Part shown: positions 8,500-62,670 of the stretch, one piece after another
Layout of the letters: the number at the start of each line of letters is the position of its first letter
How positions within the stretch are numbered: the stretch's first letter is position 1
Assembly (NCBI GenBank): GCA_973895155.1
Contig: OZ316892.1
Coordinates: 30,667,328 to 30,731,327 of the forward strand
DNA from: Marsupella aquatica
Lineage: Eukaryota; Plantae; Marchantiophyta
Direction of reading: 5' to 3'
Length of the DNA stretch: 64,000 nucleotides
The notes under the pieces: generated by a model
What the model saw: only the letters and a program-made list of their open reading frames with translations
What the model was told of the DNA's origin: nothing
Databases searched by the model: none
Translations under genes and position numbers: made by a program

Positions 8500-8559
8500 A
8501 ACTGTGAGAGAACCTCATCTTTGTCGATTACAAAATTAAGATTTTCCAAACTAATATGC

Positions 8560-42174: not shown

Positions 42175-42600
42175 CACTAGTATATTTTGGGGCCTAGTCC
42201 GATTCTCACCTTCCGACGATGCCAAGATTTCCGATTCTATTCTAATTGGATCTACGATCCAACCGTCCAAGCCAAGGCGTATCGGACCTTGCCATTAAAC
42301 TAGAATCGGACTATCACCATTCCAACCCAATCACAAACGGGCCGTCATTACGATGTAGGAAAATTTGGATTGTTTGTCCAAGCCAGAAGCAATTGGACCG
42401 CTTGGTCCGATTCTTCTCCAATGCTAGATGAATTGGAAACCCCTTTCCAAAGAAAAACGTAAGCACGTTTCCAATCAAATTAGAATTGGAAGTTGCCATT
42501 CAATACAAATTGGAAGTTTTTGATGCGCATGGAATTGGATATTCCAAGGTTTTCAGGATTGGACAATTGTTTCCAAGTGATAGGCACTGGGATTCATATT
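42175..42600 (+). mobile_element. Left end of a second CACTA-like element inserted in element D
   Basis: CACTAGTATATTTTGG begins exactly where protease homology stops, followed by CCGATTCT and AATTGGA/TCCAAT repeats. Confidence 0.65.
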
Positions 42601-45600
42601 TGTCGCGTCCCTAACCTGGGCCTTAAATCCAGTTTAGTGCCATGGCGCGACCTTGACCACCAGTAGGGGTGAGGGTTCGGGTAAGGAGGTGTGTAGTGGC
42701 CCCGATTAGCCCTAAGTCGGGCTAAGCCGATATACTTACTGGTATAACGCTTAAGCAATTCGTACTAGTCATAGGTATCTTTTATCTTCCACCGCTGGAA
42801 TCCTCCCTCCGTTAGTGACTCGGACTAACTCCCGGCTTGGGGCTTTTCAAGCCATCGATGCGAAAGAACCTTGTGACATACAATGGGTGGCAATCCCTAC
42901 CATTAGTCCGCACCCGGTACGTCCCTTAAAATGGTGCCTTTTCCCAGACAAAGCATACTCACAACACCAGTTACTTGCGGAAACATTAGAGGGAAAAGAC
43001 TACATTTACTCAGCGAAGCATCAGTTTACATGGTTGACTCGACTTCAAAGGGGGTCAGCAGGCCCAACGGCAGTCGATGCCCAGTCTCTACGAGGCCCCG
43101 CCTCGCACTTGCCCAGCAAGCTCGACTCTGGCTCTCACTCCTTGGTGCGCTCTGACCCTGCTCAGGCCGGGACTCCCCGTGCCTCACCTTTTTTCTGCTG
43201 AGATAACTAAGCCTTCTCCCCTTTCCAAAGCGAAAGGGGAAGCCTAAATACTACAGTTTGCAGAAGAGAACCGGAGGATACTACCTTCCGGGATACTACC
43301 TATTGACTAACTACCTTCTGACTACTGGCCGTGTCGCACTGACTGGTTGACCGTCGACGACAAGGGTGCCGACCAGGATGGCAGCGGCCAAGCCTACTGA
43401 CAAAAATCTAGTCCGTTGATGGACTCCATCCTACGTTGGCTGATCCTAACTGATCCGGCCCTAATTCTTTCTACTGCCGCTAATCGGCGCCTAATGACAA
43501 CCATTCTGTTGTTACACCTAACCAAAAGATGCCGCTGACTTAACTACCTCATGCGGCGCCTGCTTCCACCCTTCGCTAACCACCCCTTAAGTGTGTGCTG
43601 TGGTTGGACCAGGGCTGGTCCCCTTGTCGGGGCGAGACCTCAAGCCGCCTTGATCAGAGGTGGGCCCAGGTTTTCCCCGCTGGAGGACGAGCAGGGTAAC
43701 GCGGTCCTGCAAGGCCTTGTTGTCCCGTACCGCCTCCTCCGCCTCGTTTGCAGCTTCATCGGCCTCGGTCTGGAGCCGCGCTACCTCCAGGTTGAGCTGG
43801 TTAATGGAGTCGCAATGGATCTGGTCCTGCGCCAGCAATTTATCCCGTTCGGCGAAGAGACTAGCCACCTGCTGTGTTGCCTGCAGGAATTGTTTGTTGA
43901 GGTCGGTCAGGCTGGTAACCCAAGCCGAAGATGCTGAGCGTAATTGAAGCACGGTGTTGTCCAGCTTCTTGAGATCTGCTTGTGCTCCGCTTAACTCCTG
44001 GGTTAGTCCGTCCCTCTGTTCGACGGTGCGGACTAACTCCTCACGGCGGGTAGTGGCCTCCTCCTCGAGGTGCTCTACTAGCATCTGGAGGTGCCCGATC
44101 TCATTCCCCTTTGCCATGAGTTCTTCTTCCAAGCGGCTTACGATCCGTGGTTGGTGCTCTAACATGAAGAAGGCTGGTTGAAAGTACGCCGAGACTTGTT
44201 GTCCGATGTACGTCGCCAGCTCCCCAGACATAGTCTGGCTAAACTTCTGGACCAGGTCGTAGGCCATGGTCCCCGGGGCTACTTGGTAGTCCTTCATCCT
44301 CTCGGGTACCGGTGGTTCCTCGGGCGGGGCAACGAGCTCCTCCGTAGTCTGCGCTGGGAAGGGGAAGGTTTCTTCAGGTGGTGGAGGGATTGGGGGTGGT
44401 TGTACTGCGGGTAGCGGAGGCTCGACGGAAGGGGGCGGCGGAATTTCCACAGGAGGAGGTGGCGGAGTATTAGTCGCGGCTTCCGGCTCGGGGTTTGCCT
44501 GAGGGACGGTAGTCCGCGCGCTCGGGGTTGCCTCCTCTGGGGCGGGGGTGACATTAGTTGGGGCTGAGGTGGCCATATTCTTTCCTCTGGCCTCCCTCCG
44601 TGCCTTGTACCAGGCAAGGATAATGGCGATATGACTGCCCAAGTAAGTCTTCCCCCCAATAGCCATACCACCCTGAGCCCGCTTCAGCTCCCCCGAGAAT
44701 CTTTGGTAGAAGAATTGGGCCCAGTTCCGCCGTTTGTACTATTCCACCTGCACGATCGTTCAGAGGGAAATCTCAGATTGTGGCTCAATCATGTGTAGGG
44801 TAGTCCGTATGAAGTTAAGACGCTCCATGCAGATTAAGTTGGTGCACCACCCCTGCTTGTATCCGTTGTCCGTCTTACCCTTGGGTTTGAAGTGTCGTGG
44901 CGTATACTCCTTATCCCGAATTCGGAGTTCAACCGGCACCGGCCGGGGCAGACAGAAGATTTGCGTTAACCGATGCTTCGTGAGTGATAAGGCCTGCCCC
45001 AAAACCTTGGTGGTCGATGTGTCAGTGTCAAAATTGGAGATGAACTCACAAATCTCCTTTGGCCTGGCGGCGCACGGCCTCCATAGCAAGTGAGCAAACT
45101 GCTCCAACTGATGCTCCTTGAGATAGTCCGCGTGTTTGAGTTTCTTGATCGCGATCCAGACTACTTCGGGGACGCGAATTACCTGTAATAAGTTGGACTT
45201 TGGGTTATCTGGGGGCCGTCAGGTCTGGTTGGACGGGGGGTTTGCTGGGGCAAGTGCAGGCGCGGCGTTGGTTTGCATTGTTGATTCGGGGGCCGTCGTC
45301 GTCCTTGGCCGCTTACAAGAACGCTGTTCGAGTTGCGGACTAGCTTGCTCGGAACCTGAGGAACACTCTGTGTTGATCACTGGACGGACTTGGGACCGGT
45401 TTGGCGGTACGCCAGTGGTCATCGGCTGAGGCACTGGTGGTATCGGGGTAGCCATATCCCAGTTGAAGGCGTTGGAGCTTTCCCCGAGGAACGTAAGATT
45501 ACGCGCCGCTTCCCGTTGTCTGTTGATGTCTTCTTGATGCTTTTCGGCTGCGATCTGCTAGTCTAGGTACCCCAGAATCTTGTCGAACTCCGCTTGAGTA

Positions 45601-46450
45601 AGCCGCTGGCTGCCCTTCAGCTTAAAGAACTTCGCTGGGACTTCAAGAATCGCCTCTGCTACCGATCTAAGCCCTTCCTTGCTGAGATATAGTTCGGTGA
45701 TGTAGTCTCGTAGCTCATTGTAGCTGGAATCCCTGGTAATGGCTGTCCTTTTGCAATTAACCAGTGCTACCTTGGTCACCAGCTTCGCGTATCTTCGTTC
45801 GTAAGCGGCTTTCTCGGGACAAGAGTACCAGTAAGTCTCGGAGAACTTAGCACCTACCTTGCCAAACAAGGTCCAGAATCCCAAGGCTGTAAGGGTCATA
45901 CTAACCTCGTAGTCCGGTTCGTTGAGTCCACGTTCCCACCCGGTTGGTCCTTTTTCTCATGGAGGCCTCGCTCGTCCTGACTAAATCTCGCCACATTCCG
46001 CTCTTATCCCTCGATAATCTCCTTGTAAAGGTCGACTTGATTCGATCAAAAAGGCGAGTGAATGGCAACGTCCGCGAATTCCAAAAAGGTGGAAATGAGC
46101 AAATGGCCCCAGCGCCATCGGCTCCTCTCTTATGGGGGTGCCAGGATGAGCCCAAGCGTGAGAAGGCCAGGCCGTTTTGGTCATTGATAATGAGCTGAAG
46201 TCGGTGCCTCGGTCCAAGCGTGATTCTTCTAACTGATTTTTACTCCGCTGCCGCCACCGTACCTCGGTCGCGCGTAATAATCCTCTTTCTGAACTCATAA
46301 TCATTTGGTCATCTTAACCTACTCCTAATCTATTCATAATGGCAACAGACGGCTATACATGCTATTCTACGCTACGGCTACGGTCCTACGTCCGTATAAG
46401 ACCTAATCTACGACCTGGGTTCGGTTAAGTGACACGTTACCCGTGTCACA
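42601..46450 (-). repeat. 3' LTR of element B (3850 bp)
   Basis: TGT...ACA termini; abuts the PPT at 46451; left end shares GGCCTTAA, TGAGGGTTCGGG and CCGGCTT..GGGCTT..AAGCC with solo LTR C. Confidence 0.8.
43587..45960 (-). pseudogene. Disrupted LTR-internal ORF homologous to 50026-52656
   Basis: Collinear fragments FWTLF, HLLWRPC..EFISNFD..IFCLP, DNGY..ERLNF..IEPQSEIS, IGGKTYLGSHIAIILAWY and a C-terminal coiled coil match the 876-aa ORF. Confidence 0.85.
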
Positions 46451-46465
46451 TAGTTCCCCACTCAA
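46451..46465 (-). promoter_or_regulatory. Polypurine tract of element B
   Basis: Minus strand TTGAGTGGGGAACTA|TGTGACAC; context homologous to the PPT region of element A. Confidence 0.75.
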
Positions 46466-46489
46466 GTGTGAAGCGTCCTCGCGAACATC

Positions 46490-49130
46490 ATTACGCTTGT
46501 TGTCCTGGTGAAAGTACCTCTTCACACGGTCGTAACTAACTCGATTGGAAAAGAGGTCGCCGACGTACGTTGATAGCTGGAGGGATCCGTTTGGGTACAT
46601 CTGCTGGACAACGAAAGGTCCTAGCCAGCGTGTGTGTAACTTTCCTGGAAAGTACATGTACCTACTGTCGTACAGAAGGACAAGATCTCCCGTAGTGATG
46701 TCCACCTGGCGTAGTCCCTTGTCGTACTATTTCTTCGTTGCTTCTTGCTTGGCAGTTACGCGTCGCAATGCCCACAATCTCTGTTCTTCTAGACTGTCGA
46801 TCTTATATGCTTGATCGGACGAACTAGCGGCCTCCGGTAACCTATGGCGGATGCGTACCCGCAGGGTCTCGACCTCAAACTCGACGGGTACGAGCACATG
46901 TTGTCCGAATACCAAGAAATACGGACTATGGTTTGTGGTAGTCTTAAACGCCAAGTTGTACAAATAGACCACCGCGAAAAGCTTGTCGTCCCAGTCTGTT
47001 TGTGGGCTGCCACGGTTTTGTTGAGGATTTTCCCTACGATGCCATTAGCCCGGTCTCCTCATCCGTTACATTTGGGGTGATAAGGGGTAGTCTTCCCGTG
47101 CTTGACGAGGTAACGGTCAGTCAGTTTTTCCACCGTTGCGTTCAAAAAATGAGTCCCGCGGTCGCTGACTAATTCCAAGGGAGGTCCAAAGCGGGTGAAG
47201 ATCTATTCGTACAGGAACCTAGCGGTGGTGGCCGTGTCATCCTTGACCGTTGCCCGGGCCTCGACCCATTTAGTCGAGTAGTCGATAGCAAGAAGGATGT
47301 ACCGGCAACGCCGACCTCGGGTTACAGGGGTGAATGGTCCGATATAATCGATGCCCCATTTCTCAAACAGGGCAAGAGGAAAGATCGGGGTAAGAGGATG
47401 ATTACCCGATCTGCGGGGTTTGCCCGCGCGCTGACACAAGTCGCAACCTCGGATAAAATGGGCTACATCGTGATGAAGCGTAGGCCACCAATAACCTGCG
47501 TCCAAGATTTTGTGAGCCGTGGTGACCGGGGCAAAGTGTCCTCCTGCCTCCTCCTCGTGCATAGCTCGCATGACAATGATCGTCTCGTTATAATCTAGGC
47601 ATCTACGGATCTTCCCATCGACGCCTTCCTTATGCAGATGTCCGCGTATCATCATGTATGGTGCGGCCTTGCGCAGAAAGACTGACGCGGCCTCTTGGTT
47701 TATGTTACTTGGAATGCGGGCCGTTAAGAGGAAGGTGATTAGGTCCCCGTACCACGTTGGTTGGTCCGTTTCTACACGGAACAATTCTTCATCAGGGAAT
47801 GCATCATCGACAGGTGCGTCGTCTGATTCCCCTTCAATCCTTGAGAAGAAGTCTGCATTCACGTGTGCTTTCCCTGGTCGCACCCTGACTTCGTAGTCAA
47901 ATTCTTGGAGCAGCAGGACCCAACGGGCTATTCTCCCCGTCAAGTCTGCTTTGTTTACCATGTACTTCAGGCTGTCATGATCAGTATGGAATACTACCTT
48001 ATATCCCAATAGATAATGGCAAAACTTTTTACACAAGTAGATGATTCCCAAGGCCTCCCAATCGGTGGGCGAATAGTTTTTCTCTGCGGCAAACAGTTGT
48101 CGGCTCACAAAGTAAATGGGGTGGTCATGTTTTTCGTCGTCCAGTTGGCTTAGGACTGAGCCGATGCAAAACCCAGACACGTCGACATACACATGGAACT
48201 CCTTGTTCCAATCGGGGGTAGTCAAAATCAGAGCCATAGTTAGCTGTTTTTTTAGTTCGTCAAAGGCTGATTTTCGACGGGGAGTCATTTCTATGACCGC
48301 GTCTTGCTTCATCATTTCTGTGAGGGGTAGGGCTATCTTAGCAAAATCCTGAATGAATCGTCGGTAGTACCCTACGCAGCCTAAGAAGGATCGCACCTCC
48401 TTCTGGTCCGCCGGGTAAGGGACATTCATCCATGCGGCCACCTTTTCTTGGTCCACCTCGATCCCTCGTTTGGATACTCGGTGTCCTAGTAGCACTCCTT
48501 CCGTAACCCCGAAGAAGCATTTGCCCGGGTGTAATTTCAACCCTATTTCTCGGCACCGCTCCAAAGTCCGCCTCAGGTGTTCTGGGTGTTGGGGGATTGT
48601 TCCGAAGATGGCAAAATTGTCTATGAACACCTCCAAAAATTCTCGTAAGAAGTCATGAAAAATATTCATAATGATTCGCTGGAACATAGCCAGGGCATTG
48701 CATAAGCCAAAGGGCATTCGCCTGAACGCGTAGGTTCCCCACTCCGTTATGAACGTGGTTTTGAGCTGGTCCGATAGTCTGATCCAAATCTGGTTATAAC
48801 CCGAATATCCATCTAGGAACGTGTACACCTCATTTCGGGCTACCATGTCAAGGACCATATCCGTGTAAGGAAGCGGGTAATGGTCCTTCCGAGTAGCGTC
48901 GTTGAGCTTCCGATAGTCTTGGCATATTCGAATTTTGGGTTTACCATCAGGCCCTACCTTCTTAGGAACCACCACAATGGGGGACACCCATTCGCTAGAT
49001 AAGACGGGGTAGATTATGTCCGCCGCGATCAGTTGATCTAACTCCTCCTTTACCAAGATGGAATGTCTTGGGTTTAGTCTTCGTTGTCTCTCTTGGACGG
49101 CATGAGCACCCAAGTTTAGATCAATGACGT
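46490..49130 (-). pseudogene. pol (RT-RH-INT) of element B
   Basis: 636-aa ORF with RT (FIDN, mutated), RNase H and INT; downstream stops and frameshift; GPF motif at the end. Confidence 0.95.
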
Positions 49131-50025
49131 TGTCACGTCATCGGCTACGGCCTTAACTCAGACTTCAGCTTAGACGGGCACATCCCTCGTAAATCTGAGG
49201 GTTCGGGCAGGAAGGGAAGCACGTAATGCACCTTATTCTCGTAAACTAGCGCTAAGTGCGCATACTGCTAAATACGGACACCTCCTAGGTATGGTTTGTG
49301 TTCCGCCGCCGGAACGTACCTTAGTCGATAGCAGGATCGACCCCGGCTTAAGGGCTTCTAAGCCTTTGTGCTGTCCGCCTTCGATCCGGATTCAATGATA
49401 CAGGTCCTCAACCCGTGCTCGCAACCACTTACCCGCAGGCTGCACCCTGTGCACGTCTCGGGTAGTGCGTTTGGCCTGGCGCTGCCACCCATATACGAGA
49501 AACCCACACACATACACGCGCACATGCATACAATCTCGATTTACACGAAGGAAAATGATGGGAAAGGATTTTACTACAAAGGGAACATATGCGTACACTT
49601 AGTTGACCCGACAGCCCCGGAATGAACAGGTTCAAGGCCGAGGGTGCACACTACAACGGAGCCCGGCTCCGCACTTGCCCGGCGAGCTTAGTCCTACCCC
49701 CTCCCCTTGGTACTCTTTCATTCCCAGAGGTCGGGACTCCCCGCACATACCGCAGACGCCCAACTCTGCAACTAAAAACCCCCCTGCCTCTACCAAGGGG
49801 TGCACTAAATACTAAGGGCCGAGGGACGGGGTGTCCTCTCGCCAAAGATTCACTGACTAAGGTCTTAACTAAGCTGACAGTCAGGGCGGAAACGACTGTG
49901 TCTTATTAGAAGATCCTGATCTACGCAGGCTGGACAGCATGGCAGCAATGCTGTACCGAAGGCAGGTGCCTGTCCCATGAACCTGACTAAGCTAGTCCTA
50001 ATCCTAATCTATTCCTACTCTGCCG

Positions 50026-52656
50026 CTAATGCCTGGCATGCTTGCCAGAGCCGCCTGAATGGGAGCGGCCATCCCGCTGCCTTCGAAGCCTGTCATTGTC
50101 CGCCTTGAGGAGCTGGACCTGGTCCAGCAGAGATTCGTTCTCTCGCCTCGCCGCATCCGTCTCCTCTGCTGCCTCCTGACAAGCCTCCTCCAACTGCTGG
50201 GCGTCACTTGTCAGTTTACCCGCCAGCTGGTCCTGCTTCTCGGCCTCGGTTTGGAGCCGTGCCACCTCGGCCTGCAGCGTGGCTATCTCCGCCGTGTCCC
50301 GTTGGGCCCGTTCCTCGGCCTCCTCCAGGTCTTTCTGCCAAGTGACAGTTTGATTCTTCAAACTGTCAATCTGGTTCCGGAGTCGTGTAATCTCGGCCTC
50401 GTTCCCAGCTTTGGCCTGTTCGGCTAGGGCGGTAAGAGCGTGCGCCTTTGCTAACAACTCATCGGTGGCTGCAACCTTGGGTCGTAGTTGCCAAAGCTCA
50501 GCCTCTTGAGCCGCAACTTCGTTCTTTAGGTACACGGACTCCACCCGGTACCGCTCTATCCTCTGAAGGGCCTCTGACTGGGCCCGTCCTGCCTTTACTG
50601 CGGCAACCAACTCCTGATTGAAGAAACAGGCTACCTTCTGGGCCATGAACTCCCCGGTATCCCGGGCAATCTGATGAGAGAAATCTCCCAGAAGCCCGTT
50701 CAGAAATGTACCCGGTACGAAGAGTTCCGGGTGGTCCAGGTTGTGCCTGTCCGGAGTTGGGCACGGGCAGACGTCAACACGCGCGGGGTCCGGGGCAGTG
50801 ACGTCCAGCCCTGGGGACGTAACGTTGGAAGGGGCTGGAGCGTCCTCCTGTAGCAATGTCCGGTTCTCCGGAATAGCCACTGGTGGGTCTTTGGGAGAAC
50901 CGGGCTCGGGTAAGACCTCCGCCGTACCGACTTCTGTACTTAGCCCGGCCTGTTGGGTCGCATCAACGGTTGCGACACCCGACCCATCCGGTACCCCCTC
51001 GGTTACGACTACAGCTACTTGTGGAGGTGGGGTCGGTGAAGCTGGCGTGTCCGCTGGACTTCGGGCCTCGGGTTGGGGCCGTCTCTCCAAGGCCGGGAAA
51101 ACCCACCTAGCTGGGACGAGCTTTGTAACGTTGACACGGGGAAGGGTTCGTCGATCAAACCGGGCGTACCACTCAAGAATGATCTCGATGTGGCTAGCGA
51201 AATACGCCTTCCCGCCAATGTACAACGTCTTCCTTCGCCGCTCCATCTCTTCATGGAATTTCTTAGCGAAGTACGACGCCCACCTCCTAGGTCGATAGTT
51301 CTCGACCTGGATAACCTGGGCGGCGGAGATCTCCCCCCGGGGTTCCATCATGTGGAGGGCGTACCTCTGGAACTCCAGCCGCTCAGCTATCTCGGGGATG
51401 AGGCAGGTCTTCATCACGAACCCGTTGTCCACTGCTCCCTCTGAGGGAAAACTTGAAGATTGGTACTTGGCTCCCTTGCCCCCGGGAGCCCGTGATTCGA
51501 CTCGGTGGTCACCTTCGGGTAACCCAAAGATCATCCTGAGCCGTTCTTCCGTGAGGGACATACTCCTTCCCCGTAGCCAAGTATGTTGACGCGCGTCGTC
51601 ATAATTCCTGACGAACTCCGTCATGTCCTCCCCGTAGTACCTGCAAGTGTTCCAGGGGAGGGAGGCGAGGTGCTCGAATCCCTGAGTCTTCAGGTACACC
51701 GCATGCTTGGGATGGAGGATGTTTTTGTGAACGTTTTCCCCCATGCGGTGCATCGTCACCTTGGCCACGGCTACCGTGGCCAACGGTAACCCGGATGCAG
51801 TGGCGGATTCCTTCCTCTTCTTCCCCCGTGACTGGCTTGGGGAAGGTGACACCTCCCCATCCTCCCGATCGGGCCTGGGTAGTGCCACTGCCGTTAGTAA
51901 CAGGCCCGGGTCGGCCACGGTCACCATGTTGTCTACCGGGGCCTCTCCTGGGGTCAGAGCAGGGGGTGGGGACGATATAGTGTCGGCCCCCTGAGCGCTT
52001 GCTCCTCTGGGCCGCCTGGTCAAGGGTAGGGTAGCCTCGTCGTCATCGCTAAGATCCACAACGTTGATGACGGAGCGTACTTGTGCTGGCTGGGCGATCG
52101 GTGGTGGGGTTTGGCTAGGCTGAGGCTGAAGCTGAAGCTGAGCCTGAGGTTGTATGGATACGGGTACGGGTACGACTGAGTTGGTCATGTTGGTTGCTGG
52201 CCAAGTTCCTATGAAACTCTGTAGGTGCTGGTAAAAGTTCTCCGAAGTGAGTGTAGACGACCTTGTCGAACGGGTAGTGCTGGACTCGCTGTTGATGATA
52301 GCCCAAACCTGAGCAGGGATGTGGTCAAAGTGATGTCGCTGCAAGTCGATCGTACCCGGGATATTGAAGACCTCGTCCGGAAGCCGAAGCAATGCTTCCC
52401 AGAACCCGATATATTTGTCTCCGTTGAAGAAGTACCCGGATACCTCTGCAGGTCGGTAAAGCTTGCTCTGAGACGGGTAGTCAAAGTTAAGGATGTAGTG
52501 GTGTCGTCCTGCTAGGCGGATGGCTCTCTCGTACTCGCGTTCGATTTCATATCGGCGCGGGTTGGCGTGTTTCAATGAGTCGGCCAAGTGCCTTCCGGTA
52601 GATAGGAACTGCGTCCAGAATCGAATGGCCGAGCTGGAGAGGATCGCGTGCGACAT
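50026..52656 (-). CDS. Intact 876-aa LTR-encoded protein: plant-transposon (Athila ORF1/PMD-like) domain, Pro-rich linkers, C-terminal coiled coil
   Basis: Uninterrupted ATG-initiated ORF; EFVRNYD..WLRGRSMSLTEERLRMIFGLP resembles retrotransposon accessory domains; homolog in LTR B. Confidence 0.85.
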   Translation of the reverse strand: MSHAILSSSAIRFWTQFLSTGRHLADSLKHANPRRYEIEREYERAIRLAGRHHYILNFDYPSQSKLYRPAEVSGYFFNGDKYIGFWEALLRLPDEVFNIPGTIDLQRHHFDHIPAQVWAIINSESSTTRSTRSSTLTSENFYQHLQSFIGTWPATNMTNSVVPVPVSIQPQAQLQLQPQPSQTPPPIAQPAQVRSVINVVDLSDDDEATLPLTRRPRGASAQGADTISSPPPALTPGEAPVDNMVTVADPGLLLTAVALPRPDREDGEVSPSPSQSRGKKRKESATASGLPLATVAVAKVTMHRMGENVHKNILHPKHAVYLKTQGFEHLASLPWNTCRYYGEDMTEFVRNYDDARQHTWLRGRSMSLTEERLRMIFGLPEGDHRVESRAPGGKGAKYQSSSFPSEGAVDNGFVMKTCLIPEIAERLEFQRYALHMMEPRGEISAAQVIQVENYRPRRWASYFAKKFHEEMERRRKTLYIGGKAYFASHIEIILEWYARFDRRTLPRVNVTKLVPARWVFPALERRPQPEARSPADTPASPTPPPQVAVVVTEGVPDGSGVATVDATQQAGLSTEVGTAEVLPEPGSPKDPPVAIPENRTLLQEDAPAPSNVTSPGLDVTAPDPARVDVCPCPTPDRHNLDHPELFVPGTFLNGLLGDFSHQIARDTGEFMAQKVACFFNQELVAAVKAGRAQSEALQRIERYRVESVYLKNEVAAQEAELWQLRPKVAATDELLAKAHALTALAEQAKAGNEAEITRLRNQIDSLKNQTVTWQKDLEEAEERAQRDTAEIATLQAEVARLQTEAEKQDQLAGKLTSDAQQLEEACQEAAEETDAARRENESLLDQVQLLKADNDRLRRQRDGRSHSGGSGKHARH

Positions 52657-52757
52657 TCAGAGGAGATAGTAGTGGCGACTTAGAGCGAACGAGAGAGCTG
52701 GGGTCGAAGCTGGCGCGTGGACTGATGGACTGGTGTACTACAAAGGGTTGGCTCCCC

Positions 52758-52764
52758 TTTTATA
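52758..52764 (-). promoter_or_regulatory. Candidate TATA box for the LTR-encoded ORF
   Basis: TATAAAA(GGG) on the minus strand ~100 nt upstream of the ATG at 52656. Confidence 0.5.
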
Positions 52765-53128
52765 CCTTGAGGGCTTGTCGATCCCCCGACGTCTCCTCGA
52801 CGCCCATAGGCTGAACCGCTCACGCTTGTGGTGTGCCGGCCACTCCGCCGTTCTGAGTCAGCGCGTGTCAGTGGCTGCTTCCTTAAGTTCGTTATACGGA
52901 CCCGAGGGAGGGGCCCCTCCACGCTCGTAACCCGGGTGTGCGAATAGCGACCAGCCGCCAGTCCGAACCTGAATTCCCCCTTATTGCCTAATGATATCCT
53001 ACCCATAATGATTACCTAAATACTGTCATTATGCTAATAATAGCGGTCTAAGACACTCCTAACGCGCGTGCCGAGCGCAGTTAGACTGAATCACTCATTA
53101 ACCGCCGTACCGGCGGCGTCACAGACGT

Positions 53129-53365
53129 GTTCACCGTAGGCCGGTGAAATCCCGATTAAATCTCGGTGACTCTCTGCGAAGACGTCCTCATATTCCGATA
53201 GGAGTTCTTGGATGGCCTTTTCCTCTGGCGCTCGTAGGCCATAACCAACGTTGAATGTTCTCTCCCTCTTTGTGGTGTATTTGCTATAGTGTTCCTTGCG
53301 GATTACATCCACATGGTCTCTGGTGGCCCGGTCAAGATGAGCCTCCAATTCCTCTAGTCTGGTGC
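53129..53365 (-). pseudogene. Upstream continuation of element B pol (PR-RT linker)
   Basis: TFNVGYGL..EEKAIQELLSEYEDVFA.SH.DL.G aligns with element A TFNLGNAL..EEKTIQDLLGEYVDVFAWSH. Confidence 0.9.
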
Positions 53366-56300
53366 TGTCAAACACTTGCCAAGGAGCTTAAGCGGCTTTT
53401 CTCCCCAAAAGACTACCTAATACCTGCTCCATGTCATACCAGGGTCACAAAGGATTGACAAAACTTCTGAAGTGTGCTTACAATGTCCAATCACTCCATA
53501 CATAAGTAGTTTCAACTCTCCACTTCTAGAGAGGTAGTCCCCTTGACTACTTTTGTACTCACCCCTTCCCCTCTCCTCTACTCCAAGGATCAGCAAGGGG
53601 GATCTCCGCTCCAAGCTGTCACCTTAGAGTAGATTCTCACACAAACACCCAAGAACCCAAAGTACTTTCCTCTTCAAGCTTAAGTCTCCTCAAGACCCTC
53701 AAAGTAGTGTTACCCCTCAACCTTGCCCCCCTGGCCTTGGTTTGGGTCCACACATCCCCTTTGAGCCCTAGAGAAGGCTCCTCTATCTAAGGACTCTTCC
53801 TCTTGTTCTTACTTCTTGTTAACACCACACACCAAGCAAAGTACTTTCCACCCTCAAGCTATAATCCTCTCTAAGTCTCAAAGTAATGCTATACCTTAAC
53901 CTTGCCTCCTTGGCCTTGGTTTTGTACTAGCACATCCCCTTCAAGCTTAGACCAAGATTATACCATAGCATGGACTCTTCTCTTGCTCTCATATACTTCA
54001 AATGCACTCACACTTAATGGTCACAATGAAGATTGGTAAGTCTCCTTTTATTGCATCACCTTTACAACAAAAGTTCACTACACATTCTCCACACTAAGCA
54101 TGGACCACCTCTCCTTTCTCAAGCTTAGCCCTACCTTGGCAAGGTAGAGATTTCACTTAAGAGATGAGACTCCCGGTCCCTAACAAATGAAAACTTCCTC
54201 CTTATATACTATCTCCTTCCACATCACACCAAGCTTGACCTGGGGTCCAACTATACCTCCCCCAAGTCCTCCTAACACACAAAGTCCAACTCTATAGTTC
54301 ATAGCCCACCCTACTACTTGCTATTTTGCCTCCTTCCAAGCCCTGGAATATGCCACACATGAGTGGTATGCTTTGACTTCCAAACCTACTCCCACTTATG
54401 GTCCTCCTCACCAGCTTACCAACCCACTTGAAAGCTCGCAAAAAGAGTGAGTGAGTCTCAAGTTGTGCCTAGTCAAAGTTGGCCTTATTTTACTTGTAAC
54501 CCCTTTACTACCCTAAGTAAACTACCCCCTATATTTACTTTTCTTAACTTGATGGCCTTACACCTTTGGCCAAAGGTAAGTACCCTTCTCTAGAGCCTAA
54601 CTCAAGTGGTATGGGTGCAAGAAAGGTCAGCCCCTAAATCTGGTATTCATTCCCCTATGCCGACTTTGGTTTGCAAGTTGTCGGGACTCCCTCGTGGCCT
54701 CGGTTAAAAATATATTTGAGTGATTACTTTTCTGGGGTTCCACCTTCACCAGGGGGTGCCTTATCTTCCCCTAACTCAGCACAAAAAAAAAATTTGGGCC
54801 CCAACGGATACCTCTAGCCAAAGTTATGCCCATTCTCCCAAGGCCTGTTTTTGGTGTAAAGCGGGTGTAAGCGGCGGCCCGATTACACTTACCTTACATG
54901 CCCCTTATGGGGATTCCACGTGTCATGAGGGGAGAGCACTCTCATTATACTCATGTTTCTTATGAAGAATTTGTAAGGACAGCAATGTTTGCAGCCATTT
55001 CTCTCTCGTGAATTCAATCTAAAACCACAACATTCTCTATTGGATTCTTTCTTGTGCAGCAGTCCAGCTGATCAGCCGCCAGCCCCTCAATTTCACAGCC
55101 ACCATAGCTCACAGCCAGCCTAGTCAATTTCGCAGCTAGCCCACCTCTTCAATTTTGCCGCTAGCAACACAGTCAATTTCGCAGCTAGCAGCACAGTCAC
55201 ATCAGCGCATTTACAGCACAACAACAGCAGATTTGAAGCACAGCAGCAGCAACCATAGCTTGATTCCTTCTCAGTCAAGCAGGTCTCTCTTCTCAATTTC
55301 GTAGCTGCCCACCTTTGCAATTTCGCAGCTAGCAGCAGCATCATTCAATTCAGCAGCATCAAGGCAGCAGCCAGCCAATTCTCATGAGCATCTCGTGCCT
55401 GATTAGTAGGAGCACCTCTAATCTAGTGTGCAGCTGTCATAGCAGCAAGCAGCCTTCCCAATTCAAAGCCAGCAGCGATCCTAATTTGCAGCCATAGCTC
55501 TTTTCCTTCTCAGCAGCCATAGCTTCTTCAATCAGCAGCAGCCATTTCAATTCAGCCGCCCTTCCTTCAATTCAGCCGCCCTTGTGCTCAATTGATTCCT
55601 CAAGTAATCATGCAGCACCTTTGGACAGCCTCCCGGTGCTTGACGTCCTCACCAGCCTCGTGCTTGCTCCTCCTTGCCTCGTGCTCGCTCCTCCTTGCCT
55701 CGTGCTCGCCGCGTGATCGTCGCCCACGCGGTTTACACTTAGAAAAAAATACATTTTTTTTTTGGAAAAACAGCATTTTGGGGCGATTTTGGACCCCCCT
55801 CCAAAACTCACACATAAGTCCAAAAGGACTTCTGAGTAGCTCCACTGATTCTATGGACATAGGACTATGTCCGGGTTTACTAAGATATAAACAAAACCCT
55901 ATAACAACTTTTCTAAAATTAGGCAAAGAGGGTCAAGTCTTTATGTCTTCCAAAATTCTTCTCAACTTTGAGATGCTCCCAAAAAGTAACCAAGTGTGAC
56001 AAAGTTGTCCCACAAGTTTCTAGGGATAGAGGGGACCATACTTAACCCACTTCCAAACTTGGAACCCCTACATTTACCCATCAGCTATTTTTCCCGGGAC
56101 CCGCTATTTGGTAACTTTGATTTTTGCCAAAATACTTATAACTCCTAGGTTAAGACCCCACTTGACTTCATACTTTTTCAGGGTTCCCTAGGGACCTCCC
56201 AGCACCCATGGGGGAAATATCAGCCAAAAATAAGATGTCCGGTGTCGGGTCATTTTTCGGTCCCGACTTAGTCGCCTATTATAACTAAGGACGGACTAGT

Positions 56301-56507
56301 TTCCTGCCCCTCCTATAGTAACTTGCTTACCCCTAGATAACTTTGCATAACTAAATTCCCTCTTACCTCTACTAAGCTTCCCTTCTTACTTAAGTGCCCT
56401 AAACCTAGCTACTCTGATAGCACTAAAACTTTTTCCCTAACTATTTCCTCTTCTAAACGAAAGAATGTCATGTTTCTCTACACTAGCTGACACTGAGCCA
56501 TCCCACA
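53366..56507 (-). repeat. 3' LTR of element A (3142 bp)
   Basis: TGTCAAAC...ATCCCACA; first 1330 bp repeated at 62671-64000; TATATAA on the minus strand at ~54203-54209; no long ORF. Confidence 0.9.
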
Positions 56508-56521
56508 TAGCCCCCTACTTA
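56508..56521 (-). promoter_or_regulatory. Polypurine tract of element A
   Basis: Minus strand AAGTAGGGGGCTA|TGTGGGA just after the pol stop codon. Confidence 0.8.
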
Positions 56522-56547
56522 AGTGTGCAGCGTCCCCGCAAACACAC

Positions 56548-59500
56548 TTATTCCTGATTAAAGTACCTTTTCAACCTATCATGATGCACTCTAGTAGGGA
56601 ACACCTCTCCTTCAAGAGTAGCAAGCTGAATTGACCCATTAGCATAAACCTGGTGAACAACATAAGGACCCAACCACCGAGTATGCAACTTGCCTGGAAA
56701 ATGAGCATACCTACTGTCATAGAGTAATACCAGTTGTCCAGCAAGTAAAGAAGTTGGCTTCTTCAACTTCTTGTCATGATGTTGCTTCACTTGAGCTTGC
56801 TTCTTCTTCACTTGCTTGCTTGCCTCTTCCCGGATTTCCTCCAACTCCTCCAGCTGGTAAGCTCTCTCCATTAAACTCTGGTCAGCCTCCATTCTCTCCT
56901 CCACACTTACCCTCAAAGTAGGCACTTCAAACTCAACAGGTACAAGGGAGTGTTGTCCAAATACTAGGTAGAAAGGACTATGGCCGGTTGTGGTCTTGAA
57001 AGCAAGGTTGTAGGAGTACACAGCTGAGTATAATTTGTCATCCCAATCAGTCTTGTGTGCCGCCACGGTTTTGTTCAAGATCTTGCCAATGATGCCATTA
57101 GCTCTCTCCGTTAATCCATTGGCCTTGGGGTGATAGGGGGTGGTCTTCCTATGCTTAATCAAGTAATGGTTAGTGAGCTCCTCCACAACTTCATTCAAGA
57201 AGTGAGTCCCCCTATCACTAACCAGCTCTAGAGGTGGCCCAAATCTGGTAAAAATCTGTTGATACATGAACCTTGCTACTGTGAGAGCATTATCCTTGCT
57301 GGTTGGTCTTGCCTCTACCCACTTAGTAGCATAATCAGTTGCAAGAAGGATGTATCGATTCCTTCTAGACCTGGTCACAGGAGTGATGGGACCTATGAAA
57401 TCTATACCCCACTTCTCAAAAGGTGCAAGAGGTAAGATGGTGGTAAGAGGGTGATGCCTTGAGTGAGCTGGCTTACCTGTCCTTTGGCAAGGGTCACATC
57501 CCCTCACAAAAAGACTTACATCCTTATGAAGTGTTGGCCACCAATACCCTGCATCAAGAATTTTCCTTGCTGTTGTTGCACTTGCATAATGGCCACCAGC
57601 CTCCTCCTCATGCATAGCTCTCATCACAATGGAGATTTCCTTCTTCTCCAAACACCTCCTTAGTCTCCCATCAACTCCTTCCTTGTGAAGGACACCCTTC
57701 ACCAATAAGTAAGGTCTGATTTTTCTCAGGAAAACAGCAGCCTCCTCTTGGTTCAAATCTCTTGGTAGCCGGGTTGTGAGAAGAAATTGGATGATATCCA
57801 AATACCATGTATCTCCTCCACTTCCCACATGAAAGAGGTCTTCATCTGGAAACTGATCATCCACCTCCTTCAAGTCCTCTTCTCCTTCAATCCTTGAGAA
57901 GAAGTCTGCATTCCCATGCTTCTTACCAGGCCTGACCCTCACCTCATAATCAAACTCTTGGAGCAACAAGATCCACCTTGCCACTCTACCAGTTACATCA
58001 GGTTTATTCACCATATACTTGAGAGCATTGTGATCAGTATGAAAGACCACCTTATAGCCCAACAAGTAGTGCCTAAACTTCTTACAAGAGTAGATGATTC
58101 CTAGAGCTTCTCTATCGGTTGGTGAGTAATTCTTTTCAGCTGGTGCCAATAGTCTACTTGCAAAGTAGATAGGGTGATCCCTATTCTGGTCATCAAGTTG
58201 ACTAAGCACCACACCAATACAAAAGCCAGACACATCCACATACACATGAAATTCTCTACTCCAATCTGGTGCTATCAAGATAGGGGCTTCAACCAACCTG
58301 TTCTTCAACTCCTGAAAACTTGCTAGCCTCTCAACTGAGGGTTCAACCTCAGCCCCCTTCTTAAGCATGCTGGTTAGGGGTAAAGCTACTTTAGCAAAGT
58401 CCTTAATGAACCTTCTATAGTAGTTTAAACATCCCAAGAATCCCCTCAACTCTGTCACTGAAGTTGGAAACTTGACAGCCATCCAAACAGCAACCTTCTC
58501 TTGGTCCACTTCTATGCCCTTCTTGGATACCTTGTGGCCAAGTAGTATCCCTTCTTCCACACCAAAGAAGCACTTCCCTGGGTGAAGCTTCAAACCAACT
58601 TCCCTACATCTTTGGAAGGTCATCCTCAAATGTTCAACATGGTCCTTCCCCCTTCCAAAAACAGCAAAGTCATCTATGAATACTTCCAAGAACTTTCTCA
58701 AGTAGTCATGAAAGATATTCATCATCAACCTTTGGAACATACCAGGGGCATTACAAAGACCAAAAGGCATCCTCCGAAAGGCATAAATCCCCCACTCAGT
58801 AGTAAAGGCTGTCTTCAACTGGTCCTCCTTCCTTATCCAAATCTGGTTGTAACCTGAGTACCCATCTAGGAAGCTATACACTTCCCAACCAGCTACTAAA
58901 TCAAGTACCATATCAGTAAATGGAATGGGATAGTGGTCCTTCTTAGTGGCCTCATTGAGTTTCCTAAAGTCTTGGCAAACTCGGATCTTAGGCTTACCAT
59001 CCAAGCCTGGTTTCTTTGGTACTATGACAATTGGAGAAACCCACTCACTATTCAACACAGGATAGATGAAACCTGCTTCCAGCAATTTGTCTATCTCTTC
59101 CTTCACCATCAAGGAGTACTTGGGATTCATCCGATATTGCCTTTGTCTCACAGGTGAAGCTCCTAGCATCAAGTCGATTCTATGCTCACCAAGTTCAGGG
59201 TTTACACCAGTAAGATCCAAGTGACTCCAAGCAAACACATCCACATATTCACCTAGCAAATCTTGGATAGTTTTCTCTTCACCTGATCCCAGGGCATTTC
59301 CCAAGTTGAAGGTCTTGTCTTGCTGGACAGAGATGGTTCTGTACTGCTCAGCTCGAATCACCTCCATCTTGTTCCTCATTGTGGAGTCAAAAGTGCCCTC
59401 AAGTTGTGCCAACCTCATGCCTCCATAGACGGGTGCATTTTCAGCACTTAACTCCTCCTTCTCCTTGCTTGAATGCTGGTCTTCCTGAGTCTCATCCTCC

Positions 59501-62500
59501 TCTGAGTTTGCAGCCTTCAATTGGTCCTCTAGCTCCTTTATCTTGAGCTTTAACAAGGCTAAGTGCTTAGCCTTTAACCTCTGGTCATTACTCCTTGTCT
59601 TGATCTCAACTTGGGCAGCACCCTTGCTGGTCTGATCAACCTCCTGAGCCATTGTGATAGTGTCTTCTTGGTTGCTCTCCTTGGCTGAGGTCTCAGCCTG
59701 CTTCACCTCCTCGAGACTGGTCACTTCACTGAGACTGGGCAGAGGTGAATGGCTGGTAAGAGCCTCCTGCTCTTGCTCCTCTCCAAACACTTCTTCTTCA
59801 GTCCATTGGCTCACCATGTTCAACATGTATACCTCATCCTCATCAGATTCAGATTTGGTACTCAACTCATCGGAAAGTTCAGAATCATATTCATCCAACT
59901 CATCAGTAGTCTCTCCTTGATGCTTGTCATGACCCCATGAAACTGAAGTGGCTGGTTTGCCAAACCTAAACTCCTTCTTGCCCCAATCAGACACTACTTT
60001 GGCTCCATATAGCCAAGGCCTCCCAATCAAGATTGGGTAAGTAGATGGCCTTGCTGGTCTCATCACCAAGTAATTCAACAAGAACTCCTGCCCCCCAATG
60101 AGAGTAGGTACTTGAGTAAGTGTCCCCACCGGTAGCACTCTTGCTCCATTTGCTAGCCTCATTGTCCTTGCTGTTGGCTGAAGTTTCTTGAAACCTAGTT
60201 GTTGGGCAGTAGCCTCAATCATGATATTCACACCTGAGCCTCCATCAACTGGTACATACGAGAGTACACACCCATTTACTTGAACATCAATCTCAGGTGC
60301 TCCAAGGTCTTCACAAACCATCATCACATCAGCTGGGGTACCAACCTTTGGAAGCTTCCTTCTTCTCCTTCCTACCAACATCTCCTTCAGTTGCCTCCTA
60401 TACAAAGGGTTGTCTTTGATCAGCTGCCCCACTGTAGCAGTAACCAAACAATCTTTCACATCCTTCTTGATGTCATAAGAGGGTACCTTGCTGGTCTCTT
60501 TCTTCTCTTCCACCTCAGCTTTTTCCTTCAAAGCTTTAGCAACCTTCAGGTCTTTGTTGATGGCCTCTTGATGCTCCTTAGCCTCCATCTCCTCTAGTTG
60601 CCTCTTGACTTCCTCATTCACCTTGGGATAGAAGAGCTTCGGATGGTCTCTCTTGTAGTCACTATCTTCAGCTGGTGGGACTTGAACTTCTGCTCCAACT
60701 TCAACTTCGATTGGTGACTCCGTTGAGTGCTCCTTTCTCTCCTTCCTCTTCTTCCTCTCTTCCACTCTTTCCTTCTTTCTTGTGGACCTGGTAGACACCT
60801 TGTAACACACAGCTTCCTCCTCAGGTGTCTCCATTCCTGGTAGATCTGGCTGGTTCTCCCCACCAGCAACTTGTGTCACTCCATCTTTGGCCTCCTCTTG
60901 CCACTCCATACTCAAGAAGTTCACTGTGGCTTCACCGGGAGCCTTGGCAACCGCTGGTGGTGGTGCTTCTATCCTTCCTATCATCATCTTGGCAGCAGAT
61001 CCAATAGGACAGTTGGCTGTGGTATGACCCTCCCTTTTGCACACAGCACAAAGAGGATAGGGAGCTCCTTGTCCCTGCCTCCTTGGTTCGGGGCAACTGT
61101 TGGAATAGTGCCCTGGTTTTTGACAGTTCCAGCAGATCACCACGGTAGTTCTTGCCACTCCCCCAGGTCCTTGAGGTCCCATTTGATCCACCATCCTTGG
61201 TTGAAGACCAGGCATCAGTTGAGGTGCCATGGGTGGAGCTGGTCTTCCTTGCAAAGTTCTTGGGCCTCCTGAAATCTGGTACACCATCTCCGGGGCTTCT
61301 TCATAGAAGTAGTCCACCACTTCACTTGCTTGATAAACATCGTTGGACTCTTCATTGACATACTGAACTTGATTCCTCCAACCTTGACACTCTTGAGGTG
61401 TATGGCCAAAACTCTTGCACTTGACACACCATACATGGGCTCTATTCACCGGCACTTTTCTCCTATCAGGTTGCACACCAGCAAAGTGAACTGATAGGGC
61501 CTTGAGTTGGTTGGTGATCTCACTCATCTTGTTATCCATCACCTTCTTCTCCTTGGTTGCTGGTGTAGAACCTTCCACCAAGTTGAAGGTTGCAGATTTG
61601 TGGTGCTTACCACCTGGCTTCTTCTTGCTGGCTCTCCTCTTCTGGTCGCTTTTTCTCTTTGCCTTCTTCTTCTTCTTCTTCTTCTTCTTCTCGGAGTCCT
61701 CCTCAGAATCAGATTCTGAATCAGAACTGGAACTACTCTCCTCAGATTCCGACTCAGAAGTATCCTCAACTGAACTACTTGATTCACTTGAGCTAGAAGA
61801 AGAATCACTATAAGCAAATCGCTTCTTCTTTCTCCTACTCTTGGAACTAGAGATCTCAGCACTCCTATAAGACTGAGCCGCCTCAATGGCCTCATCCAAC
61901 GTATTAGGGTGAGATTGCCTTACTGAGACACCCATCTTCTTGGGTAGGCTTGCCACAAACCAAGCCAACAACATGGAGTCTACTGGTCTGGGGTCAAGCT
62001 TGGTAGCTAACCTTTGAAACCTTTGCAGAAACCTCCTTACTGACTCCTTGGATCCCATTCTGATCTCTCCCATCTTGATCAGAGCTTCCGATTCTTCTCC
62101 CACCTTCCTAAACTCCTGCAAGAATGCTAGCTTGAAGGCATCCCAATCATTCTTGATGGCATTTGATAGGCTATTGAACCAAGGTCTTGCTTCTCCTCTC
62201 AAGACCCCCGCCAAAGTGGTCAACTTAATATCAAACTCTCCATTGGCTTGGGCTGTCCCAATGAAGTCCTCCAACCAAGCATCAGGATCCTCCTTGGGCT
62301 TGCCATGGAATGTCTTGTACTGAAATCTTGCTCTTTGAGTCACCACCATGGCTGCTTCTTGATCTTCACTTGTGTTGGTAGTGGAAGAAGATGTATCACT
62401 CCACCCTACACCAGGTTCCGCTTCAGCTTGCAAATGAATGTCCACCCAATCTGGTTGCTCCAACTGGTCACCAAAGTTGAAACTAAGAGAGGCTTCTTTT

Positions 62501-62616
62501 AGTGCTTGACTCCTTGTAGTGGGCATGCCACTCACAATCACCTTCTTATCTCCCTTCTTCTCTTGAACAGCAAACCTGCAAACACACCTCCAAGTCTTGT
62601 GGCTCCACTCCAACAA
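56548..62616 (-). CDS. Gag-Pol polyprotein (gag, 3 CCHC knuckles, PR, RT, RNase H, integrase)
   Basis: 2022-aa ORF; three CX2CX4HX4C; VDGGSG; FIDDF; DVSG/TDH; H..CDPC, WGID, SDRG, NGLTER; GPY; no chromodomain. The likely ATG is at ~62526 (MPTTRS). Confidence 0.97.
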   Translation of the reverse strand: MLEWSHKTWRCVCRFAVQEKKGDKKVIVSGMPTTRSQALKEASLSFNFGDQLEQPDWVDIHLQAEAEPGVGWSDTSSSTTNTSEDQEAAMVVTQRARFQYKTFHGKPKEDPDAWLEDFIGTAQANGEFDIKLTTLAGVLRGEARPWFNSLSNAIKNDWDAFKLAFLQEFRKVGEESEALIKMGEIRMGSKESVRRFLQRFQRLATKLDPRPVDSMLLAWFVASLPKKMGVSVRQSHPNTLDEAIEAAQSYRSAEISSSKSRRKKKRFAYSDSSSSSSESSSSVEDTSESESEESSSSSDSESDSEEDSEKKKKKKKKKAKRKSDQKRRASKKKPGGKHHKSATFNLVEGSTPATKEKKVMDNKMSEITNQLKALSVHFAGVQPDRRKVPVNRAHVWCVKCKSFGHTPQECQGWRNQVQYVNEESNDVYQASEVVDYFYEEAPEMVYQISGGPRTLQGRPAPPMAPQLMPGLQPRMVDQMGPQGPGGVARTTVVICWNCQKPGHYSNSCPEPRRQGQGAPYPLCAVCKREGHTTANCPIGSAAKMMIGRIEAPPPAVAKAPGEATVNFLSMEWQEEAKDGVTQVAGGENQPDLPGMETPEEEAVCYKVSTRSTRKKERVEERKKRKERKEHSTESPIEVEVGAEVQVPPAEDSDYKRDHPKLFYPKVNEEVKRQLEEMEAKEHQEAINKDLKVAKALKEKAEVEEKKETSKVPSYDIKKDVKDCLVTATVGQLIKDNPLYRRQLKEMLVGRRRRKLPKVGTPADVMMVCEDLGAPEIDVQVNGCVLSYVPVDGGSGVNIMIEATAQQLGFKKLQPTARTMRLANGARVLPVGTLTQVPTLIGGQEFLLNYLVMRPARPSTYPILIGRPWLYGAKVVSDWGKKEFRFGKPATSVSWGHDKHQGETTDELDEYDSELSDELSTKSESDEDEVYMLNMVSQWTEEEVFGEEQEQEALTSHSPLPSLSEVTSLEEVKQAETSAKESNQEDTITMAQEVDQTSKGAAQVEIKTRSNDQRLKAKHLALLKLKIKELEDQLKAANSEEDETQEDQHSSKEKEELSAENAPVYGGMRLAQLEGTFDSTMRNKMEVIRAEQYRTISVQQDKTFNLGNALGSGEEKTIQDLLGEYVDVFAWSHLDLTGVNPELGEHRIDLMLGASPVRQRQYRMNPKYSLMVKEEIDKLLEAGFIYPVLNSEWVSPIVIVPKKPGLDGKPKIRVCQDFRKLNEATKKDHYPIPFTDMVLDLVAGWEVYSFLDGYSGYNQIWIRKEDQLKTAFTTEWGIYAFRRMPFGLCNAPGMFQRLMMNIFHDYLRKFLEVFIDDFAVFGRGKDHVEHLRMTFQRCREVGLKLHPGKCFFGVEEGILLGHKVSKKGIEVDQEKVAVWMAVKFPTSVTELRGFLGCLNYYRRFIKDFAKVALPLTSMLKKGAEVEPSVERLASFQELKNRLVEAPILIAPDWSREFHVYVDVSGFCIGVVLSQLDDQNRDHPIYFASRLLAPAEKNYSPTDREALGIIYSCKKFRHYLLGYKVVFHTDHNALKYMVNKPDVTGRVARWILLLQEFDYEVRVRPGKKHGNADFFSRIEGEEDLKEVDDQFPDEDLFHVGSGGDTWYLDIIQFLLTTRLPRDLNQEEAAVFLRKIRPYLLVKGVLHKEGVDGRLRRCLEKKEISIVMRAMHEEEAGGHYASATTARKILDAGYWWPTLHKDVSLFVRGCDPCQRTGKPAHSRHHPLTTILPLAPFEKWGIDFIGPITPVTRSRRNRYILLATDYATKWVEARPTSKDNALTVARFMYQQIFTRFGPPLELVSDRGTHFLNEVVEELTNHYLIKHRKTTPYHPKANGLTERANGIIGKILNKTVAAHKTDWDDKLYSAVYSYNLAFKTTTGHSPFYLVFGQHSLVPVEFEVPTLRVSVEERMEADQSLMERAYQLEELEEIREEASKQVKKKQAQVKQHHDKKLKKPTSLLAGQLVLLYDSRYAHFPGKLHTRWLGPYVVHQVYANGSIQLATLEGEVFPTRVHHDRLKRYFNQE

Positions 62617-62632
62617 AAACTGTAAAGAGTTG

Positions 62633-62650
62633 TCCCCGGCAGCGGCGCCA
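62633..62650 (-). promoter_or_regulatory. Primer binding site, tRNA-Asp type
   Basis: TGGCGCCGCTGCCGGGGA, one base from the Athila-type TGGCGCCGTTGCCGGGGA. Confidence 0.85.
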
Positions 62651-62670
62651 AAAACAAGGGTGGGACTCTA

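Follow-up and report, generated by a model that had tools for sequence, protein, structure and literature searches.

The 3,993-bp unit described here interrupts the polymerase (pol) gene of a retrotransposon and is largely filled by one long open reading frame (ORF), which raises two questions: what kind of mobile DNA it is, and what its gene may do. It lies at positions 49131-53123 of the window, i.e. the 64-kb stretch of the Marsupella aquatica genome analyzed here (contig OZ316892.1), which is a nest of minus-strand Ty3/gypsy elements. The unit is very probably the solo long terminal repeat (LTR) of a Ty3/gypsy retrotransposon, with the ORF located inside the LTR. We further propose, at a little short of an even chance, that it is the solo LTR of a non-chromovirus Ty3/gypsy element whose gene product, with a predicted fold of the VANC21/plant mobile domain (PMD) type in its central domain, binds DNA and counters the silencing of its own family. 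Coordinates of the main features are collected in Table 1.

Boundaries and abundance of the unit

The first letters of the unit are TGTCAC and the last are GTCACA, which together form a short imperfect inverted repeat, and the unit is flanked by a 5-bp target-site duplication (TSD); TG...CA ends with a TSD of 4-6 bp are what is expected of a solo LTR. When one copy of the TSD is kept, the reverse transcriptase (RT) frame of the host pol reads through the insertion site. The sequence check thus bore out a first-pass annotation of this DNA, made from the sequence alone, which had described TGT...ACA ends, a perfect GACGT duplication and a clean interruption of pol. The same annotation had named short terminal direct repeats beforehand as the outcome that would overturn its reading; self-BLAST of the unit at word size 7 found no terminal direct repeat, and neither gag/pol nor transposase was detected inside it in the ORF list and the Pfam search. 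A non-autonomous retroelement of the TRIM/LARD type was ruled out, since terminal direct repeats around an internal region are absent.

Data on other copies come from contigs of public sequencing runs. Eight of the nine runs listed contain part of the unit, and four (X1-X4) were examined closely. It was covered in all four, with 367 to 13,086 contigs per run falling on the stretch. In X1-X3 the summed contig depth, which is not equivalent to copy number, was many tenfold greater inside the unit (tens of times the value for the flanking pol) and changed sharply at its two ends. In two of the four runs (X2 and X3, one contig each) position 49125 was joined directly to 53124, representing the empty site. 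Depth edges and empty-site contigs therefore confirm the boundaries of the unit and mark it as a real mobile repeat of high abundance. Contigs leaving it at 49131 mostly carry unrelated flanks.

Relationship of the unit to long terminal repeats

The host of the insertion, element B, provides a first link to LTRs. Its pol harbors two insertions, namely the 4-kb unit and element A, a young Ty3/gypsy element. Downstream of the B pol stop codon follow a polypurine tract (PPT) laid out as in element A, the letters TGTGAC, and then 3,850 bp terminating in an end that resembles that of the solo unit. A tblastn comparison located a homologue of the 876-codon ORF in this segment (45899-44607, 26% identity, E 2e-36; and 44276-43689), beginning 551 nt 3' of the PPT. 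The similarity extends beyond the ORF into the non-coding part 3' of it (63% over 229 nt, E 6e-12, and 67% over 98 nt). It is thus confirmed, as had been claimed, that a homologous ORF lies downstream of the PPT of B, which places it inside the inferred LTR of B, the B unit starting exactly at the PPT; the tract expected immediately before such a unit in other elements was found through this homologue.

A second link is provided by the 10-mer GGGAGTCCCG, which was picked by eye before being counted. It matches four times in 64 kb, against 0.02 matches expected, with one match in each LTR-type unit and all on the same strand. GGGAGTCCCG is nearly palindromic and kept in the LTRs of three diverged families, which also makes it a candidate for a cis-element recognized by a factor of either the host or the element.

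Further evidence comes from the loose ends of contigs at the two boundaries. At 49131, those of X1 (four contigs, agreement 0.92, median 14 nt) lead into a T-rich spacer like the one preceding the primer-binding site (PBS) of element A, and those of X3 (two contigs, mixed) give the T-rich pre-PBS-type spacer too; it was not seen in X2 and X4. The 10-mer TTGTTTTTGG occurs a single time in the window, at the spacer-PBS junction of element A. At 53123, the majority line of 14 loose ends in X2 agrees with the PPT of B at 10 of 15 places, a level reached by 0.13% of random 15-mers from the window, and shows no match to the PPT of A in the register tested.

Searches found no loci related to the ORF in viral and metagenome contigs, and none related to the B pol in viral and prokaryote contigs. 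One metagenome match to a 20-mer of the unit's end was rejected as a chance hit inside a bacterial ORF, which, judging from its sequence, we take to be thymidine-kinase-like. Overall, the ends and TSD, the empty site, the spacer contigs, the PPT-adjacent homologue in B and the shared GGGAGTCCCG support well the solo-LTR reading first proposed for this unit.

The 876-codon gene and its predicted protein

The frame runs unbroken for 876 codons from an ATG located 468 nt into the unit, and occupies 66% of it. The earlier description of one ORF filling two thirds of the unit behind a TATA box holds for the ORF and for the presence of the TATAAA; the latter is a weak promoter candidate, because the unit of B contains no TATAAA.

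Conservation of the gene is visible at several levels. The families of the solo unit and of B, only 26% identical in protein, keep both the position of the ORF and its three-part layout. A HMMER search of 1.84 billion representatives returned 42 relatives at E<=0.001, most of them over residues 300-520; a relative of 906 aa aligns end to end with the 876-aa protein at 29% identity, while in others the similarity is to the N-terminal domain or to the helical tail. The species-named clusters (8/20 looked up) all belong to the liverwort Calypogeia fissa, which points to a liverwort, or a plant near that group, as the probable host of the window. A word-index search with the full protein gave no match among 7,996 candidates scored; with the domain alignment, the same type of search gave none among longer proteins and four among proteins of near length, none of which bears Pfam labels. 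Among the copies of the unit, 11 indels are listed, ten of them frame-breaking and all situated outside the ORF (in the non-coding third, at about six separate sites), and one of 3 nt within it; larger joints inside the ORF in run contigs were left out of this deletion count.

In the AlphaFold2 prediction, a helical domain (residues 1-127) is followed, after a disordered linker, by a globular domain (~290-500), which a second linker connects to a helix of ~200 residues; the motif KKRK precedes the globular domain. The N-terminal domain (residues 1-127), covered only within whole-protein and whole-model searches, matched no family or fold. No transmembrane segment was found (highest 19-residue hydropathy 1.34, and no membrane-helix pattern in the model), by which an env-like ORF was ruled out.

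Pfam searches with the 876-aa protein gave only weak coiled-coil matches and none to PF10536 (PMD), PF20167 or PF03078 above the curated cut-off; PF20167 was touched by one of 33 aligned relatives (E 0.059, with 25 of 59 families listed). Folded alone (pLDDT 89.5, pTM 0.86), the central domain had as its top Foldseek match VANC21 (9lnj_A; probability 0.99, E 0.013, TM 0.53), the next matches having TM 0.13-0.15, and VANC21 was also the top match in VIA (Z 8.2, rmsd 4.2 A over 209 aligned residues; next Z 2.1, 48,161 chains). With the whole model, Foldseek returned VANC21 at probability 0.93, and the VIA list, dominated by coiled coils, placed it second (Z 7.9). Coiled coils aside, each of the four fold searches of the PDB thus ranked VANC21 bound to its target DNA first among solved structures, the match spanning the whole central domain without a competitor. 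A BFVD fold search gave nothing at E<=0.001, the best entry being an unnamed protein (TM 0.31, rmsd 19).

The central domain is predicted on these models to adopt the VANC21/plant-mobile-domain fold. Since VANC is reported to be structurally homologous to MAIN (PMC13547354), a protein with the plant mobile domain, which Gypsy elements encode as well (PMC5418596), the modeled fold most likely places the ORF product in the PMD/VANC group. The initial guess of a PF20167/PMD relationship found no sequence match for the 876-aa protein and only this indirect, structural support.

Two consecutive ORFs elsewhere in the window (34840-36888, minus strand; 427 and 241 aa) resemble the central domain weakly (hhalign probability 17%, E 0.0015). 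They are followed by a coiled coil and by a Cys/His stretch that looks RING-like by eye, and this is possibly another transposon-borne PMD-like gene.

CpG content and the neighboring elements

Methylated CG turns into TG over time, and the observed/expected (o/e) ratio of CpG differs widely between the elements of the window. It amounts to 0.87 in the solo unit, 0.83 in the B LTR and 0.98 in B pol, versus 0.33 in the A LTR, 0.12 in A pol and 0.17 in the pol of element C. Over the same 2.2-kb stretch of pol, B retains 131 CpGs and A nine, with equal GpC ratios, although over 709 residues the pol proteins of A and B share 73% identity. The A LTR gave no match to the ORF profile. Thus CpG is kept in the ORF-bearing units and in B pol, and the lineages with the LTR gene look as if they have long escaped CG methylation.

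Element A is recent, its LTRs being 99.9% identical over the comparable 1,330 bp. Its PBS begins with TGGCGCC, presumably of the tRNA-Asp type. The gag-pol of A and the pol of B, which are neighbors of the solo unit and not its own pol, have the order RT, RNase H (RH), integrase (INT), with no aRH and no chromodomain in Pfam. The best reading of the ORF-bearing lineage is an OTA-like, non-chromovirus Ty3/gypsy group; the liverwort 'zero' Tat elements lack the aRH too (PMC13468544), so that its absence does not single out Athila.

Comparison with known systems

VANC21 is encoded by VANDAL21, a Mutator-like DNA transposon of Arabidopsis (PDB 9lnj/9lnk). The 9-base motif that it binds lies in non-coding stretches of VANDAL21, where it reduces methylation (PMC5735166), and both VANC and the Athila domain are reported to oligomerize by coiled coils (PMC13547354). 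The M. aquatica protein resembles it in the predicted fold of the central domain and in being a transposon-encoded accessory protein with a coiled-coil part, and a comparable role would fit the ORF-bearing elements not being CpG-depleted. The two differ in that identity is 10% with no profile match, that the 876-aa protein has an extra N-terminal domain, and that its ORF lies inside the LTR of a retrotransposon, not in a VANDAL element. In addition, VANCs are described as dicot-specific (PMC13547354), whereas the named relatives of the 876-aa protein were found only in a liverwort.

The extra ORFs in Ogre, Retand and Athila retrotransposons (PMD PF10536, Transposase_28, Athila ORF-1 PF03078, PF20167) are likewise accessory ORFs on non-chromovirus Ty3/gypsy elements. 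In view of the reported structural homology between VANC and the PMD protein MAIN, the 876-aa protein, as modeled, likely shares a fold superfamily with them. The first-pass statement that Athila/Tat extra ORFs normally sit between pol and the 3' LTR agrees with reviews, in which such ORFs of plant elements are assigned to the internal region, either ahead of gag or after pol and short of the 3' LTR (PMC7264820, PMC6317226). The homologous ORF of B, in contrast, lies 3' of the PPT and outside the internal region. Rice Retrosat2/RIRE3/RIRE8 (Tekay) elements likewise have an extra ORF and numerous solo LTRs, and their LTRs exceed 3 kb, but their ORF0 is upstream of gag-pol, separate from the LTR, and they belong to a chromovirus lineage (PMC3485330).

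Retroviruses offer a precedent for a gene inside an LTR, as had been pointed out in the first-pass annotation: mouse mammary tumor virus (MMTV) encodes a superantigen of ~320 aa. Its ORF lies inside the LTR (PMC2118998) and the gene is therefore present at both provirus ends. The likeness is one of position, as MMTV is a vertebrate retrovirus with an unrelated membrane superantigen, whereas the 876-aa protein has no transmembrane segment.

In the literature covered, with subscription papers outside its scope, neither a gene inside a plant retrotransposon LTR nor a VANC-like gene on a retrotransposon was found among the matches listed; the lists of extra ORFs in the supplements of PMC6317226 may bear on novelty. 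Accessory ORFs are thus already known, and what is new is an accessory PMD-type ORF in a new place, the LTR, with a specific, testable functional lead. According to a paper of 2026, a possible modulation of element methylation by Athila-type ORFs is still to be investigated (PMC12844716).

Proposed function and alternatives

Given the architecture described above, the chances of an anti-silencing role appear evenly balanced. Under this proposal, reverse transcription would duplicate the gene into both LTRs of every new element, and recombination between LTRs would leave a single copy, which would be the origin of the unit at 49131-53123. The gene would be transcribed from a promoter near the 5' end of the LTR, the main promoter of the element being further down, as befits a U3 location. 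Its basic central domain would bind short LTR motifs and its long C-terminal helix would oligomerize the protein, and the bound protein would lower methylation, so that members of the family remain active. Residence in the LTR would provide a doubled dose of the gene, place its own target sites next to it, and allow solo LTRs to supply the protein in trans. The first-pass annotation had suggested that the accessory gene may have moved into the LTR in this lineage and may outlast solo-LTR formation as an expression cassette.

Several observations weigh against this proposal or against the architecture on which it is built. A full-length element bearing the ORF in each of its LTRs was not encountered, and the 5' end of B lies outside the 64-kb window. 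The PBS was read only to its first bases, in two of the four runs, all of one study, and the line matching the PPT of B is mixed (agreement 0.44). The similarity to VANC21 is of moderate strength (rmsd 4-5 A, a Foldseek E of 0.013, and Z 8.2 near the range that VIA calls common) and has no support from sequence (10% identity; 0 matches of the profile to PDB chains). Moreover, the fold does not give the direction of the function, because MAIN/MAIL1, which are silencing proteins of the host, belong to the same fold family. Synonymous changes make up 8 of the 19 in-ORF substitutions listed (0.31 expected, P 0.2), an excess that is not significant, the 19 being drawn from 40 rows among 649 and mostly private changes of this copy. 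The CpG contrast compares two ORF-bearing units with A and C, the LTR of C lying outside the window; the region 16001-24000, with several ORFs, also has CpG o/e up to 1.19; and element A, strongly CpG-depleted and without the ORF, is nevertheless young and intact. VANC21 lowers CG methylation only locally (PMC5735166), whereas CpG retention here spans pol. Finally, no tandem array of a target motif was found in the non-coding parts of the unit; the best 6-mer, ACTAAG, is present seven times in the non-coding parts of the solo unit versus 0.8 expected (one of 14 scans, P ~0.01), with copies pointing either way, and is not in the top 6-mer list of B.

The alternative that fares best, which may well be true although the chances are somewhat against it, accepts an LTR gene with a PMD/VANC-like fold but assigns it another job, as transcription regulator of its own LTR, chromatin tether or helper in assembly (suggested for other accessory ORFs too), with CpG retention due to some other cause, for example recent arrival of the lineage or unmethylated chromatin. 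The LTR and fold evidence fits it equally, the missing target array and the further CpG-rich stretches of the window favor it, and what the PMD does on retrotransposons is described as undetermined (PMC5418596). It leaves unexplained, however, why CpG is kept in both ORF-bearing units and in B pol and lost in the 73%-identical pol of the ORF-less A, and the sole solved structural match is to a DNA-bound anti-silencing factor.

It is improbable that the unit is instead a mobile cassette of the non-autonomous kind (resembling a DNA transposon, or left by internal deletion of a retroelement) with a PMD-like gene, and the homologue in B an old insertion located by chance behind the PPT. PMD/VANC-fold genes are a known cargo of Mutator-like DNA transposons (PMC5418596, PMC13547354), the inverted repeat at the ends and the missing full-length element would suit such a cassette, and at 4 kb the unit would be a long LTR, although lengths up to ~5 kb are reported (PMC6317226). 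Against it stand the exact start of the B unit at the PPT with the junction layout of A, the presence of GGGAGTCCCG in both proven A LTRs, the PBS-type spacer after the end in other copies, and the absence of terminal direct repeats and transposase.

That the ORF is a decaying, now functionless remnant of an ordinary accessory ORF, brought into the LTR by a boundary shift, would accord with the in-frame stops in the B copy, the lack of a significant synonymous excess and the dispensability of the gene in sister lineage A, but is highly unlikely in view of the position and layout kept across the two families, the frame-breaking indels that avoid the ORF, and the full-length relatives elsewhere.

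Other features of the window

Between the end of the B LTR and the protease region of element C lies a 400-bp stretch (42200-42600). Adjoining the end of C is a plus-strand ORF (38187-38978) with a match to NLI-interacting-factor-like phosphatases (PF03031, E 4e-6). Repeat units of ~20-21 bp, based on AAGGACT and present in either orientation, form arrays at 28270-29250 and 33630-34060, which resemble the subterminal repeats of a DNA transposon. A Transposase_24 match was obtained at 3409-4062, and a weak N6_N4_Mtase match (E 0.0024, below cut-off) at 20393-21691.

Table 1. Features of the 64-kb window (aa, amino acid residues of the 876-codon ORF; strand as read in the window).
Feature	Position	Strand	Remarks
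Solo LTR-like unit	49131-53123	-	3,993 bp; TG...CA ends; terminal direct repeats absent; high-copy; empty-site contigs
TSD, left copy	49126-49130	.	GACGT
TSD, right copy	53124-53128	.	GACGT
876-codon ORF	50026-52656	-	Open; same sense as LTR-type motifs and B gag-pol
N-terminal helical domain, aa 1-127	52276-52656	-	Confident model
Central globular basic domain, aa ~290-502	51151-51789	-	Predicted VANC21/PMD-like fold; pI 9.3
Long helical, coiled-coil-like C-terminal part, aa 648-861	50074-50715	-	
TATAAA, candidate promoter	52759-52764	-	108 nt 5' of ATG
GGGAGTCCCG motif	49732-49741	-	Also in B unit (43168) and both A LTRs (54682, 63987)
Element B pol (RT-RH-INT), 3' part	46494-49130	-	5' part resumes at 53129-53365
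Element B PPT	46451-46470	-	Directly before TGTGAC; layout as in element A
Element B, inferred 3' LTR	42601-46450	-	3,850 bp; collinear with solo unit, coding and non-coding
Homologous ORF in B LTR	43587-45899	-	One frame; in-frame stops
Element A (young Ty3/gypsy, inserted in B pol)	53366-64000	-	Continues past window end
Element A 3' LTR	53366-56507	-	3.1 kb; without ORF; PPT before it
Element A gag-pol	56548-62667	-	Open, 2,039 codons; RT, RH, integrase
Element A 20-nt spacer and PBS	62633-62670	-	Behind 5' LTR
Element A 5' LTR	from 62671	-	Runs past window end
Element C	~39400-42200	-	Broken pol fragment

Implications

Extra ORFs are common in plant Ty3/gypsy elements and their function is an open question, which an LTR gene with a VANC21-like fold makes directly testable through binding sites and the methylation of copies. 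In the literature covered, sequence-specific anti-silencing proteins have so far been described for VANDAL DNA transposons. We suggest tentatively, at less than an even chance, that a plant LTR-retrotransposon lineage carries a VANC-type, sequence-specific anti-silencing gene in its LTRs, that its solo LTRs act as a trans-acting shield, and that the fold was used for counter-defence already by the retrotransposons of early land plants. If this is true, solo-LTR formation, usually seen as the host disarming an element, would leave behind a working counter-defence gene, and pipelines that mask LTRs, or call such ORFs host genes, would miss a class of transposon genes, the named relatives being at present 'unnamed protein products'. 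The PMD-type extra ORFs of Ty3/gypsy elements would then gain a function, and the origin of VANC-like anti-silencing would be pushed far back.

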